Source: Candidatus Latescibacterota bacterium
Lineage (GTDB): Bacteria > Latescibacterota > UBA2968
Length of the DNA stretch: 47,490 nucleotides
NCBI GenBank assembly: GCA_038279365.1
Contig: JAYODI010000020.1
Span: 19,956-67,445, forward strand
Direction: 5' to 3'
In this document: in pieces, positions 27,123-32,354 of the stretch
Numbering within the stretch: position 1 is the stretch's first letter
Layout of the letters: each line of letters opens with the position of its first letter
Notes under the pieces: generated by a model
The model's database searches: none
What the model was told of the DNA's origin: nothing
The model's input: only the letters and a program-made list of their open reading frames with translations
Program-made: the position numbers and the translations under genes

Positions 27123-27204
27123 GGTCGCAAGTCTACAGGTCGCAGGTCAAATAGCGGATTGCCTTTATTTTGACCTGCGATCTGTAGACCTGCGATTTGT
27201 GACC
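27123..27204. repeat. Heptamer-built palindromic element, copy C (best-paired copy)
   Basis: GGTCGCA AGTCTACA GGTCGCA GGTCAAA ... TTTGACC TGCGATC TGTAGACC TGCGATT TGTGACC. Confidence 0.88.
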
Positions 27205-27219
27205 AGATTTTATTATCTT

Positions 27220-28182
27220 ATGGCCGAACTTAAAAATGAATTTTCGTGGTCGCCGTCTCGGCATCGGATGTTTGAATCGTGTTCCCGCCAATATTATTAT
27301 AACTATTACGGCAGTTGGGGGGGGTGGTACGATTCGGCAGATGAGTTGACGCGTTTGGTATATCGGCTCAAGAAGATGAGCACGTTGCCCCAGTTGGTGG
27401 GCACGGTGGTTCACGATGCCATCAGCCGGGTATTAAAGGCGATTCAAAGTGGGCGCGATGTGCCGTTTAAAACGGCAGAGACGTACGCCACACAGTTGTT
27501 AGATCGGCACATCGAAGATTCATTGGAAAAGCGATGGTTGCGGTCGGCGTCTAAACACACCCATTTGTTTGAACACTATTATGGCCAAGATGTAGATATC
27601 GACGCAAGTCGTGCGCGTGTGGTCGAAAATATCAACGCGTTTTTTGAATCTGAAGCATTTACAGTTCTCCAAAACACACCCACCGATCAGTGGTTAAGCG
27701 TAGAGGCGTTGACGTCGTTTTTGTTTAATGCAACCAAGCTGTGGGTGGCCTTAGATGTGGCGGTTCGACAAAATGGCGGCGTGGCCATCTTTGATTGGAA
27801 GACCGGTCGTGAGCGAGAAGCAGATCGACTCCAATTGGCGGTTTATGCCCTATATGCCTCCACGGTGTGGGGCGTGTCCATTCCACATTTACAGTTGCAA
27901 GATGTGTATTTGCAAGCTGGCGTGGTCAGTTCTGTACGTGTGGACGCAGAGGTGTTGGACGAGACGCGCCAGATTATTTGTGAGAGCATTGCCCAAATGC
28001 GGGAACGGCTCGATGACCCTAATGCCAATACCGCGTCGATAGACGCTTTTCCAATGACCGATAATCGCTCAACGTGCGAATCCTGTTCCTTCAAAGCGGT
28101 CTGTTTCCCAGATAACCCCACAGTTTCACCTCCTCCCAAATTTTCTTCACAAGAAAAACCCACACAACTTTCTTTGTTTTAA
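27220..28182 (+). CDS. PD-(D/E)XK nuclease (RecB/AddB-type with a 1+3 Cys Fe-S staple)
   Basis: SWSPSR...SCSRQYYY, GTVVH, LD...IFDWKTG, QLAVYAL, CESCSFKAVC. Confidence 0.85.
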   Translation: MAELKNEFSWSPSRHRMFESCSRQYYYNYYGSWGGWYDSADELTRLVYRLKKMSTLPQLVGTVVHDAISRVLKAIQSGRDVPFKTAETYATQLLDRHIEDSLEKRWLRSASKHTHLFEHYYGQDVDIDASRARVVENINAFFESEAFTVLQNTPTDQWLSVEALTSFLFNATKLWVALDVAVRQNGGVAIFDWKTGREREADRLQLAVYALYASTVWGVSIPHLQLQDVYLQAGVVSSVRVDAEVLDETRQIICESIAQMRERLDDPNANTASIDAFPMTDNRSTCESCSFKAVCFPDNPTVSPPPKFSSQEKPTQLSLF

Positions 28183-28791: not shown

Positions 28792-29038
28792 ATGAACCGA
28801 GATGAAACCCGATCTGAACGGCTCAAAACACTCGAAAACCTATGAAGATTTGCCCAACGGGGGCTGTGTGATGACGCTCACGGTGAGCCATACACTGGAG
28901 ATGAAGCCGTGGATTCGTGGGTGGGGTGCCGATTGTGAGGTGTTGGAGCCGGAGGACTTGAGGCAGGTGATTGCAAAGGAGATGATTGCGGCAGGGAAGG
29001 TGTATGAGTGCATAGAGGCTCAAGATGATTCTATGTGA
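28792..29038 (+). pseudogene. WYL-domain transcriptional regulator with a large internal deletion
   Basis: AGGAG + MNRDETRSERLKTLENL* joined out of frame to a WCX-type C-terminus (EMKPWIRGWGADCEVLEPEDLR); HTH and WYL core absent. Confidence 0.75.
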
Positions 29039-29363
29039 TATTGAGCCAACTTTTTAAGGATGCTGTGAGTTGTGTTTGATCTACTTGTGTGAGCTGTCCC
29101 ACTTTCTTAAGAATCAAATTTTGGTGAATTGTATATAGCCCGCGTTTAATCGCAGATGAGACATTAAGGCCAGATTGTTGCCAACTTTCAAGTACAAATT
29201 CACCTGCTAACAAATTTGTGGTTTGACTTGTGAGGGGTACAATAAAGACATCTTGTGAAGTGTGTGGCGTACTGACAATAATGGCTGGCCGTATTTTAGA
29301 TGCGCTTAAATCAGAAAAAGGATATTGGACAAGTACCACGTCATTCATTGAGTAATTGGGCAT
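29031..29363 (-). CDS. PemK/MazF-family toxin
   Basis: DVVLVQYPFSDLSASKIRPAIIVS, VPLTS, SGLNVSSAIK. Confidence 0.88.
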   Translation of the reverse strand: MPNYSMNDVVLVQYPFSDLSASKIRPAIIVSTPHTSQDVFIVPLTSQTTNLLAGEFVLESWQQSGLNVSSAIKRGLYTIHQNLILKKVGQLTQVDQTQLTASLKSWLNIT

Positions 29364-29541
29364 ACACATCGTCCTCTCTGTTGTCCCAGATTTTCTTAAG
29401 CGATTCTTGGCTGGCTTCTTGCCAAAATGTGTCATCATCAGATAGCATTGTGACCAACAGTTTGGTACCCTCAGGAAACAAAACGCGTTCTACGGTTTCA
29501 ATTTTACCATCTTTAACAACTGCCAATATTGTGTTTGCCAT
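29341..29541 (-). CDS. Cognate antitoxin (DUF104/AF2212-like N-terminus)
   Basis: MANTILAVVKDGKIE...PEGTKLLVT...FWQEASQESLKKIWDNREDDVYAQLL; overlaps the toxin start; GGGAG RBS. Confidence 0.75.
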   Translation of the reverse strand: MANTILAVVKDGKIETVERVLFPEGTKLLVTMLSDDDTFWQEASQESLKKIWDNREDDVYAQLLNE

Positions 29542-29667
29542 CTTAGAAACTCCCATTATGGGATGTGGGGTGCAAATCAAGGTAATCAATGTGCGTATGA
29601 CAAATATAGTAAGATTTATGTAGTGATGCAAAAGTTGAATCAAATATGATAATTGTGAAAGGCTAAT

Positions 29668-30029
29668 ATGGGCGAACAGCAAGTTGATAATTACCTGCGT
29701 TATTGGGGCAAGGCCGGTTATGGCACCGAGGCCATGACAATCCATCTATTGCCTTACCACTGTTTGGACGTTGCCGCCGTAGGCCAGGTTTTTTTGAGCC
29801 GAAACGATCGCTTAAGAAGAACGCTTGCCGAGTTATGTGGTTTAGAAGAACAGCTATTTGTCCCGTGTATGGTTTTCTTTGCCTGACGTAGACAGAGCAA
29901 TGTTGAAAATGGTTTCTTGGTGGTTAGGTGGATTCGCTGTTTTGTGTGATTGGATAGGTTCAAATATGGATTTTTTTACGGCCTGTGATACATCCATGCC
30001 ATTGGAAACATATTGGAAATTGTCATTGG
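29668..30029 (+). pseudogene. cas3: Type I-E cas3 HD-nuclease remnant (two out-of-frame fragments)
   Basis: RYWGKA...HLLPYHCLDVAAV stops just before the expected HDLGK motif; second fragment SWWLGGFAVLCDWIGSN...MPLETYW; helicase absent. Confidence 0.85.
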
Positions 30030-30119
30030 GTGTTCCCCACGAGTGTGGGGATGAACCGCGTAAGGCTTTGAACAAAGCTTGTACAGTGAAGTGATCCCCA
30101 CTGGTGTAGGGATTACCAA
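30030..30119 (+). CRISPR. Minimal type I-E CRISPR remnant: 29-bp repeat, 32-bp spacer, degenerate terminal repeat
   Basis: GTGTTCCCCACGAGTGTGGGGATGAACCG (30030-30058); spacer CGTAAGGCTTTGAACAAAGCTTGTACAGTGAA (30059-30090); GTGATCCCCACTGGTGTAGGGATTACCAA (30091-30119). Confidence 0.88.
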
Positions 30120-30233
30120 AGTCATTCCACTACAACAAGGATTGAATATTTAGGGTGAAAAATTGTGTATATTTTCTGTATGTGTGTTGTTTATGATTAC
30201 TGATGTGGTTTTGTAATCTCTGGAGGTGTTGTA

Positions 30234-30491
30234 ATGAAGCTTTTGGCCAAAGTGAAATTTGTTGGGGCGATGACGTTGTTGGCGGGAGGGGTGGGGTATT
30301 TGGTGAGTCGGTTTGGGGGGCAGATGAAGCAAAAGTTGAAAGAATCACAGAAAAAACGAGAACTCCAAGCCGAGTTGGCGGCTGTTTTGGGTGAAAAAGC
30401 GCGTATTGAAGAAGAACTGCGTCAGTTGGAAGCACCTGATGAAGGGGTGGGTGAGGCGGAGAACGAAGACGAAGATGTTACACCCTCATAA
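30234..30491 (+). CDS. Small membrane-anchored coiled-coil protein, unknown function
   Basis: GGAGG RBS; hydrophobic N-terminus, heptad-like middle, acidic tail. Confidence 0.6.
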   Translation: MKLLAKVKFVGAMTLLAGGVGYLVSRFGGQMKQKLKESQKKRELQAELAAVLGEKARIEEELRQLEAPDEGVGEAENEDEDVTPS

Positions 30492-30577: not shown

Positions 30578-31576
30578 GTGGTTCCTGTGGCCCATCCGGT
30601 GGCAACTGATTCTTATCGTTCTTTGCGAAACGACATTACCCAACTTTTAGAAGCGGGTAAAAACAGAGCCGAGCGTGCGCTTGAAGATGAACTGGTCAAA
30701 ACATATCATGCGGTAGGGAAAGAAATTAGTGCGCATTTGGATGGTATGGGAGATGCCTCAACTTATGGTGCGCAGTTGGTAGAACGGTTGGCCGCCGATG
30801 TGGGGTTGGGCATTCGGTTGTTGTATGATTGCATCCGTTTTTTTCGTCAGTTTCCAACATTGCCTACATCAACAGATTTAGGTTGGAGCCATTTGCGGGT
30901 GTTATTTATGTTGCCCACACCGGCTTTGCGAAATCAGTTTTTAAAAACCGCTGCCGAAGAAGGTTGGACGGTAAGAGAATTGCGCGATCAGGTTCAAAAG
31001 CAGGTCACCGTCGATCCCAAGCCTGTGCGTACGCCACGTGATCATTTGCCTCCTTTGCGTGGGCGTTTATATACCTACAAACGCAAAGAGGTCAATGGCG
31101 AGGCGCGTTTAGACTTGGGTTTTCACATCTCACGTGCGTGGCCCAAGGGTGTGTCTGAAGCACCTGTGGTACAATCCGTTTTAACCGATTCGGGTTTTTC
31201 GCTTGAACCCACGCAAGGTCGGCGCGATACTTTTTATACGTATCGGGCCACTTTACAGCGTGTGATTGATGGCGATACGTTGTGGGTCAATTTTGATTGT
31301 GGGTTTGATACGTGGATTGATCAAAAGGTGCGTTTGCGTGGCATTGATGCGCCCGAAATGGACACACCCGAAGGACAACGTGCACGCCGTTTTGTAGAAA
31401 GCGCTTTGCGCAAGTGCCCCGTGTTGGCCATTACAACCACCAAGCCCGATAAATATGATCGCTATTTGGCAGATGTGTTTTATTTGGCCGATGAAAAAAA
31501 TGTGGATGTGGTGTTGGAGCAAGGGCTGTTTCTCAACCGCGAATTGATTGAGGTGGGCTTGGCAAAGCGCGTGTAG
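30578..31576 (+). CDS. DUF1016 (YhcG) N-terminal domain fused to a thermonuclease (SNase) domain
   Basis: YHAVGKEI, YGAQLVERLA.D, LGWSH, EGWTVRELRDQV; then RVIDGDT, VRLRGIDAPE, DKYDRYLA, LNRELIEVGLA. Confidence 0.85.
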   Translation: MVPVAHPVATDSYRSLRNDITQLLEAGKNRAERALEDELVKTYHAVGKEISAHLDGMGDASTYGAQLVERLAADVGLGIRLLYDCIRFFRQFPTLPTSTDLGWSHLRVLFMLPTPALRNQFLKTAAEEGWTVRELRDQVQKQVTVDPKPVRTPRDHLPPLRGRLYTYKRKEVNGEARLDLGFHISRAWPKGVSEAPVVQSVLTDSGFSLEPTQGRRDTFYTYRATLQRVIDGDTLWVNFDCGFDTWIDQKVRLRGIDAPEMDTPEGQRARRFVESALRKCPVLAITTTKPDKYDRYLADVFYLADEKNVDVVLEQGLFLNRELIEVGLAKRV

Positions 31577-31578
31577 AG

Positions 31579-31956
31579 ATGGGAATCATACAAGAGGAAC
31601 ACTGTGAGATGCCAGAGAATAATTTAGCACTAACGTCAGATGAGAAAGTATGGTTAGATGCTTATAAATGTGCCATTCGGGAGCAGTTTCCCGAATTGAT
31701 TGAGGATCTTATTGTATTTGGCTCAAAAGCGCGTGGTACTGCAACCGAAGATTCTGACTTGGATATGGTTGTGATTATTCGAGAAGGTGATTGGAGGGTA
31801 AAACAAGCCGTTTCTGATGCGGGTTACGCGTTGGCCATTGGGACACAGGTGGTTCCTTCGCTTGTTGTATTTACAAAAGATGAATGGGATTTGCGCATGA
31901 AAGAAGAAGCACCATTTTGGCAGACGATTTATCGCGATGGAGTGACGGTAGCGTGA
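31579..31956 (+). CDS. Minimal nucleotidyltransferase (MNT) antitoxin
   Basis: VFGSKARGTATEDSDLD; ATG 31609 is an alternative start. Confidence 0.88.
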   Translation: MGIIQEEHCEMPENNLALTSDEKVWLDAYKCAIREQFPELIEDLIVFGSKARGTATEDSDLDMVVIIREGDWRVKQAVSDAGYALAIGTQVVPSLVVFTKDEWDLRMKEEAPFWQTIYRDGVTVA

Positions 31957-32354
31957 AGCCCAAACATATTACGCAGGAATTTAGCCGTGCGCTAAAATCA
32001 CTACAGGCTGCCAAAATCCTGATCGCAGAAGATTTGATAGAAGATGCGATTTCAAGAAGTTATTACGCGGTTATGCATGCTGCTCGGGCCGCATTGCTCT
32101 TTCACGATGTGATAGCTGAGTCACACACAGCATTACGCCGACTGTTTGGTTTAGAGTTGATTAAACCAGAGCGATTAGAAAAAGAGTGGGCCGCGATATT
32201 ATCACGCGAGCAGACACAGCGGTCGATTGCAGATTATGATGTAGAAGTGGTTTGGAATCGTGAAATCGCCAGTGATTTGATTGACGATGCACACTTATTT
32301 GTTGAACGTATTCGTGTTTATTTGACGGTAGAAGGTGTTTCACTTGATGCGTGA
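31953..32354 (+). CDS. HEPN-domain protein (UPF0332-like)
   Basis: DAISRSYYAVMHAARA, SH, R..ADYD, A..FVERI; GTGA overlap with the MNT stop. Confidence 0.88.
   Translation: MKPKHITQEFSRALKSLQAAKILIAEDLIEDAISRSYYAVMHAARAALLFHDVIAESHTALRRLFGLELIKPERLEKEWAAILSREQTQRSIADYDVEVVWNREIASDLIDDAHLFVERIRVYLTVEGVSLDA

Follow-up and report, generated by a model that had tools for sequence, protein, structure and literature searches.

CRISPR-Cas systems are lost frequently, and why and how this happens is still open; the usual account is selection on random mutations, and passages of PMC6990116 review cas loss as an escape from self-targeting. The locus described here raises the question in a concrete form: by what event does a type I-E system come to consist of the front part of cas3 joined to the very first base of a CRISPR repeat? 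It lies in a stretch of 47,490 nucleotides (the window; G000:C141:19956-67445) of a Latescibacterota MAG, G000, of 6.03 Mb in 199 contigs, with a completeness of 98.5% and a contamination of 7.4%. Metagenomes from estuary, marine and marsh sites hold near-identical DNA.

A Dead Type I-E Locus

Positions 28792-30119 of the window are a dead, eroded type I-E CRISPR-Cas locus that carries several deletions (Table 1). The initial annotation had read here a WYL gene kept as its first 17 codons and its C-terminus, a cas3 gene without the segment that holds the HD motif, and a second cas3 fragment abutting base 1 of a repeat that is followed by one spacer and a degenerate terminal repeat. Each of these readings was borne out, and alignment to the closest intact loci mapped the three breakpoints.

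Table 1. Features of the eroded locus and its immediate surroundings (positions in the window).
Feature	Position	Strand	Evidence or remark
PD-(D/E)XK nuclease gene	27199..28182	+	PF12705, E 7.9e-21; conserved left neighbour of the CRISPR slot in relatives
HTH-WYL-WCX regulator gene, 5′ remnant	28792..28845	+	ATG at 28792, 17 codons; 76% nt identity to 5′ end of G019 WYL
WYL gene, C-terminal WCX domain	28844..29038	+	PF25583, E 1.1e-13; 80% aa identity to G019 WYL 265-320
PemK/MazF-family toxin gene, intact	29031..29348	-	PF02452, E 2.4e-8; 76% aa identity to G019 copy, full length
Putative antitoxin gene, 66 aa, intact	29341..29541	-	Overlaps toxin start; homologous to G019 gene at the same place
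cas3 fragment 1	29668..29886	+	PF18019 1-60, E 4.5e-9; PRK09694, E 8.4e-14; 67% aa identity to G049 Cas3 2-70
cas3 fragment 2	29879..30029	+	PF18019 181-207; 66% aa identity to G049 Cas3 196-245
Type I-E repeat, 29 nt	30030..30058	+	Base 1 joined to cas3; junction alignment; spanned by X6, X7 and L053
Single spacer, 32 nt	30059..30090	+	No target found
Degenerate terminal type I-E repeat	30091..30119	+	21/29 identical to repeat 1
Type I-B repeat relic, 37 nt	30112..30148	+	30/37 to G016 array repeat; 23/23 at 30124-30146

Measured against the full 323-aa HTH-WYL-WCX gene of genome G019, about 740 bp are lost within WYL, and the 5′ remnant ends at a stop made by a frameshift (28843-28845). A second loss, of 377 bp against G049, falls at 29879-29881 and removes approximately residues 72-195 of G049 Cas3, HD motif H74-D75 included, which splits the PF18019 match in two. 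The first cas3 fragment extends from the start to about residue 71, with homology stopping at 29880, and the second is in a different reading frame. The join lies in a T run where, as read from the alignment, a microhomology of 2-3 nt suffices. Both the WYL and the HD deletions look like ordinary short-microhomology deletions, for which no CRISPR mechanism is needed.

The third loss is the largest. Homology to cas3 reaches within 0-1 nt of repeat base 1 (74% nucleotide identity to the homologue; TTG-G before the repeat in the window against CTG-A in the homologue), leaving at most 1 nt of the junction alignment unassigned. The remnant stops at about residue 245 of 929 on the scale of G049 Cas3, and the homologous position in G049 lies 7,993 bp from its first repeat; approximately 8.0 kb of cas genes and leader are missing, and cas3 adjoins the first repeat with no leader at the array. 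The type I-E origin is apparent from a cas3 gene of the kind with an N-terminal HD domain, the closest intact counterpart of which belongs to a cse1/cse2 operon, and from an array that is also I-E-like, with a palindromic 29-nt repeat ending in CCG and a 32-nt spacer. Up to 7 mismatches, neither a second match to the spacer nor another copy of the repeat occurs in the 199 contigs of the genome. The spacer has no match in the G049 operon, and its first 20 nt gave no exact 20-mer match in viral_contigs.

Although deletions flank it on both sides, the PemK-type toxin-antitoxin pair at 29031-29541 is untouched, and its survival between two deletions would fit addiction. The pair stands between WYL and cas3 in the window and in G019 and is absent from G049; a family (profile) search with the putative antitoxin gave no match. 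Its position varies around the slot, after WYL in G019, before WYL in G016 and between two WYL copies in G039.

The surroundings hold two further elements. Upstream of the PD-(D/E)XK gene, at 27125-27195, is a 27-nt inverted repeat (93%) with similar elements on several other contigs; it and its copies draw loose contig ends, and it is probably a REP-like dispersed repeat. Directly behind the CRISPR wreck, at 30578-32354, a DUF1016_N-SNase fusion gene is followed by an MNT-HEPN-like nucleotidyltransferase-HEPN pair, together a small defence or toxin-antitoxin cluster.

Junctions in Independent Assemblies

A join this neat could be produced by the assembler, and it had been pointed out at the outset that a collapsed assembly, with the cas genes on another contig, would undo the interpretation. 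Ten runs contained at least half of the sampled words, and four of them, from four studies not flagged as source, were compared as assembled contigs; runs with shares near 0.2 were left out. In X7 (study P4), one contig piece covering 29777-30343 with 9 differences crosses both cas3 junctions. X6 (study P3) crosses both as well, reading 29844-30058, an extra spacer and then 30029-30237, i.e., its strain has one repeat-spacer unit more than the window. The WYL junction is crossed in X8 (study P5) by a contig covering 28253-29320, and the cas3-repeat junction also by a JGI contig (L053) with the same collapsed structure and the same spacer. Among the pieces listed for X5, none crosses any of the three junctions. 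The P3 and P4 junction contigs carry SNPs of their own.

Each of the three junctions is thus crossed by contigs of independent studies, and we reject an assembly collapse. The broader suspicion that the junction is an artefact and the cas genes sit elsewhere could draw on a MAG of 199 contigs with 7.4% contamination and on support that comes from assembled contigs; we give it hardly any credence, because single contigs of P3, P4 and JGI cross the junction, one of them with an extra spacer, and searches of the genome found no cas1, cas7e, cas6e or cse1 and no further cas gene of type I-E or I-B. Family searches and tblastn with 16 reference Cas proteins found no cas1, cas2, cas5, cas6, cas7, cas8 or cas11 in G000, and an array scan found no further CRISPR array. 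The Cascade genes cas8e, cas11, cas7, cas5 and cas6 had no match in a genome that is 98.5% complete. What did appear was a weak match of the Cas3 C-terminus on contig C65 (31%, E 3e-5) and two weak PF22590 matches elsewhere, both without a Cas3_HD match.

The same contigs bear on the order of events. In X8, a 13-letter loose end behind 29880 continues into L-A-L-H-D codons; it enters the HD codons, hence an allele without the HD deletion exists. Depth in X8 is zero at the listed places within 29893-30015, and the HD-containing allele is not linked to the repeat junction. Because this contig end reads into the HD codons and another run has an extra spacer-repeat unit, the losses were separate events. 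The stepwise inactivation that the initial annotation had proposed is thereby upheld, with losses that occur separately among strains and an intact operon of the parental type in G049. Strain variation also touches the array itself: X5, X6 and X7 differ from the window at two repeat loop bases (30041-30042) with the stem kept, and all four compared runs differ from it at 30114 and 30120 in the terminal region.

Succession of Systems in the Slot

The intact operon in G049 (L059) has the order WYL-cas3-cse1-cse2-cas7-cas5-cas6-cas1-cas2-leader-array; NCBIfam typed cse1, cse2, cas7e, cas5e, cas6e and cas1e, and cas2 was read from the sequence. Its repeats gave 17 and 22 matches on two contigs, and 15/16 spacers are 32 nt long. 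The intact parent allele itself was absent from 53 genomes of the order and from the metagenome loci listed (at least 6), and the same-genus genomes G001 and G002 have no WYL or cas remnant within the stretches examined, although a rearranged or unassembled locus may exist in them.

The slot has housed other systems. A PD-(D/E)XK gene stands upstream of WYL in G016, G019, G023, G024 and G049, and behind the two genes lie I-B-like systems in G016, G024 and G032 and I-E systems in G023 and G049; G039 has an I-C system behind WYL. In the window, a 37-nt relic (30112-30148) overlaps or abuts the terminal I-E repeat in the orientation of the relatives' I-B arrays. Its match to Rfam CRISPR-DR7 is weak and below threshold (E 0.74); the cas7 gene beside the 37-nt repeat array of G016 was typed Cst2/DevR I-B. 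The same relic lies behind the I-E array of G052, where it is followed by DNA similar to that behind the terminal I-B repeat of G010. We also considered the relic as a last spacer: there is no repeat at 30152, and the relatives' terminal I-B repeats share both its orientation and its frayed 3′ end, so a leftover terminal repeat is preferred. As such it likely ended an I-B array that occupied the slot before, and the I-E cassette likely replaced that I-B cassette and left one repeat behind. No I-B cas genes or I-B array were found in G000. In this little-studied phylum, the locus would record the occupants of one slot in order: type I-B, type I-E and decay.

Two side observations concern the same succession. 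In the I-E arrays of G019 (L024:6594-6625) and G052 (L087:3330-3363), one 32-nt spacer close to the trailer corresponds to the reverse complement of a type I-B repeat. The incoming I-E system may have acquired spacers that target the I-B array already present, which would offer a route to displacement; since the G019 and G052 trailers share other old spacers, the anti-I-B spacer may be one ancestral event. Lone degenerate I-B repeats (L030:13787 and 7331, L032:14984, L025:3624 and L031:16010) either precede cas6, cas8 or cas1 or lie well away from the array. Some may be CRISPR-like regulatory RNAs, a class that one preprint (10.1101/2023.03.03.530964) reportedly lists, and others may be swap scars.

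Recurrence of the Base-1 Join

The initial annotation had suspected that a break at a repeat boundary is not random, and other genomes support this. We surveyed the phylum with the PF18019 profile (168 genomes; best 150 of 167 matches) and took 15 matches with short or split frames plus 5 long-frame controls; weaker matches with 400-550-aa frames, probably other HD proteins, were left out. Five of the 15 short or split cas3 loci run into an I-E repeat (G089, G136, G134, G129 and G117), and the other 10 meet a contig end, other DNA or an array kept apart from cas3. Broken cas3 genes are common in the phylum (L068-L082), and the two parts of the G103 copy are separated by an insert of other DNA, about 1.7 kb long.

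The join is exact in two genomes. In G019, which belongs to another genus, cas3 is intact to residue 435 and is followed by repeat base 1, with 0 nt between them when compared with a 93%-identical intact gene; G136 has an exact base-1 join with 1-nt microhomology at 93% identity to its intact homologue. The others are inexact: G134 is joined through a 10-nt cas3/repeat microhomology, G089 has 6 extra nt, and the joins of G117, at the last 8 nt of the repeat, and of G129, 26-39 nt upstream of the repeat, were both read without a close intact homologue. With 4/6 of these phylum deletions inexact, ordinary routes also reach arrays. In G134 (L074:9640-9605), the 10-nt cas3 stretch mimics the start of the genome's own repeat, and recombination left a single hybrid repeat.

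The pattern extends to Escherichia coli. Among 60 evenly spaced rows from 2,778 records, 8 had a partial cas3, with 5 breakpoints, of which 3 end in cas genes according to the annotation and 2 at the array; two further strains with the second E. coli breakpoint were left out of the count. Both array breakpoints, STEC379 and JML285, are exact base-1 joins with zero microhomology. STEC379 keeps 14 spacers, and two intact relatives carry the first of these at position two or three of their arrays, an order compatible with a leader-proximal join; there are also intact arrays in which the spacers that come first in the two E. coli cases occupy internal positions (s3 and s11).

Exact base-1 joins were therefore found at five different cas3 positions (window, G019, G136, STEC379 and JML285). 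With the window excluded, 4/8 independent cas3-to-array deletions stop at base 1 (2/6 in the phylum and 2/2 in E. coli). If endpoints were uniform over a 61-bp unit, with 1-3 positions allowed, about 3% would be expected per case; under this simple null, and for a small sample, P = 5e-6 to 3.5e-4, and the phylum alone gives P = 0.004-0.032 in the same uniform model.

The cas3 bases that precede the joins were compared as well. The triplets at -35..-33 are CAT (the window), GGT, AAA, CGT and TCT; AAG, which is the PAM of E. coli and may not be that of this clade, occurs in 0/5. A flipped-PAM reading, in which C is joined and the intact gene continues with TT, holds for G019 alone (1/5). A looser rule, AAG or CTT near the junction in the three Latescibacterota cases, was dropped: 15% of random positions qualify, the E. 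coli cases are negative, and one of the three cases depends on a 74%-identical proxy.

Origin of the Join

The main deletion was likely the work of the locus's own Cas1-Cas2 integrase. We hypothesize, with a probability of roughly 50%, that it arose in a one-ended reaction, in which the enzyme attached a broken end of the chromosome to the repeat. Direct observation extends to the three junctions, to the disappearance of every other cas gene and to the reappearance of the base-1 join in further lineages; the mechanism is inferred. According to passages of PMC10011333, the bond that Cas1-Cas2 makes first links a sense-strand 3′ end to base 1 of the repeat, and the window has a join of this kind, with a 3′ end set precisely on the 5′ edge of a repeat (0-1 nt unassigned). 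A break near the array would have been resected back into cas3, and Cas1-Cas2 would have treated the 3′ end of the cas3 sense strand like the non-PAM end of an incoming prespacer, attaching it to the 5′ edge of a repeat as in the usual opening step of integration. Lacking a PAM 33 nt upstream, this DNA would never have been cut down to spacer length, and replication would have fixed a chromosome without the rest of cas3, the Cascade genes, cas1, cas2 and the leader. The remainder would have decayed through the short-microhomology deletions in WYL and the HD segment and through repeat-to-repeat spacer loss, with the toxin-antitoxin pair spared. The lack of AAG at all five exact joins is expected if a missing PAM prevents trimming, an interpretation made after the fact.

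Several observations weigh against one-ended integration. The nearest intact cas3 is about 74% identical, and a short microhomology with the end of a lost spacer is possible at the window junction; four of the six other phylum deletions are inexact, and the 60 rows of E. coli include three more types of breakpoint, all of them ending within cas genes. Moreover, the joined repeat may or may not have been the leader-proximal one: arrays lose units, as X6 against the window indicates, and some intact E. coli arrays carry in internal positions the spacers that come first in the two collapsed cases. Finally, capture of a self-spacer followed by recombination yields an identical product. In this alternative, which also depends on Cas1-Cas2 and which we regard as unlikely though serious, the array would have taken up an ordinary self-spacer from cas3, in direct orientation; the spacer and its protospacer, identical over 32-33 bp, would then have recombined and thereby deleted everything between them. 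It predicts the exact junction seen, the last 32 nt of cas3 being the fused spacer and protospacer. Passages of PMC2886076 report anti-cas spacers that accompany cas loss in E. coli. The anti-I-B-repeat spacers of G019 and G052 suggest local self-acquisition in the family, and self-acquisition hotspots near arrays are known. On the other hand, AAG at -35..-33 and G at -33 are each found in 0/5 exact joins, and the ATG of the window lies a single base out of register, so that the spacer would have had to slip. Up to half of naive spacers have AAG, and only PAM-bearing ones would select for cas loss. Two rare events would also be required. Since this route predicts AAG in a good share of cases and 0/5 were seen, we weight one-ended integration higher, as a matter of judgement.

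An edge preference independent of Cas1 is improbable in our estimation. It would arise from breakage or template switching at a repeat hairpin, a stalled fork or an R-loop, followed by end joining. The repeats are palindromic, and the inexact joins of G134, G117 and possibly G129 use, or may use, repeat-like microhomologies, with host repair targeting arrays. However, the predicted stem, as read from the sequence, begins at repeat base 3-5 and not at base 1, slippage at a hairpin should remove the hairpin and not preserve it whole, and the two E. coli joins lack any microhomology. Pure chance, a random illegitimate deletion that happened to end at base 1 and drew attention by its neatness, is very hard to sustain when half of the eight cases outside the window are exact against about 3% expected for each, even though the window was chosen for this very feature, its two other deletions are ordinary and the parent sequence was not recovered.

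A scar fixed where the integrase attacks would make the adaptation machinery the source of the system's own loss, and such base-1 scars could be counted in public genomes. More tentatively, at slightly less than even odds, Cas1-Cas2 may act as a self-destruct recombinase and be a main route of CRISPR-Cas loss across phyla, producing about half of the cas3-to-array deletions and leaving the base-1 scar.

Comparison with Known Systems

A search of titles and abstract openings, with most subscription journals outside its scope, found no paper on cas-repeat fusion breakpoints at repeat base 1. A dead locus with a cas3 pseudogene is a known end state; the breakpoint rule is apparently undescribed so far. 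The interest of the window lies in this rule, to which it adds a second phylum. In the degraded I-E loci of Salmonella and Shigella, the operon is deleted and a cas3 pseudogene is left (Touchon and Rocha 2010, PMC2886076). They resemble the window in this respect, and the passages concerned neither map breakpoints nor mention a join at the repeat edge. The orphan CRISPR3/4 arrays of E. coli with anti-cas spacers (passages of PMC2886076) are likewise short cas-less arrays after cas loss; unlike them, the window has no leader, and its spacer has no match in its own genome or in the G049 operon.

Among intact loci, that of G049 shares with the window the order of WYL then cas3 in the slot, 66-67% amino acid identity in both cas3 fragments, a 29-nt repeat of the same family and 32-nt spacers, whereas the window has lost cse1, cse2, cas7, cas5, cas6, cas1 and cas2 together with the leader and the greater part of cas3. 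G019, G136, STEC379 and JML285 all have, like the window, the 5′ part of cas3 set on base 1 of an I-E repeat with a short or leaderless array; they differ from it in their cas3 breakpoints and in having no extra HD deletion, and WYL is whole in G019. A mechanistic parallel is the half-site intermediate of Cas1-Cas2, described in passages of PMC10011333, in which the 5′ edge of the repeat likewise carries, on the transcribed-sense strand, a newly joined 3′ end. There, the substrate is normally a 33-bp prespacer, and a second attack and duplication of the repeat follow; in the window, it would be the chromosome itself that was joined, and the product would be a deletion.
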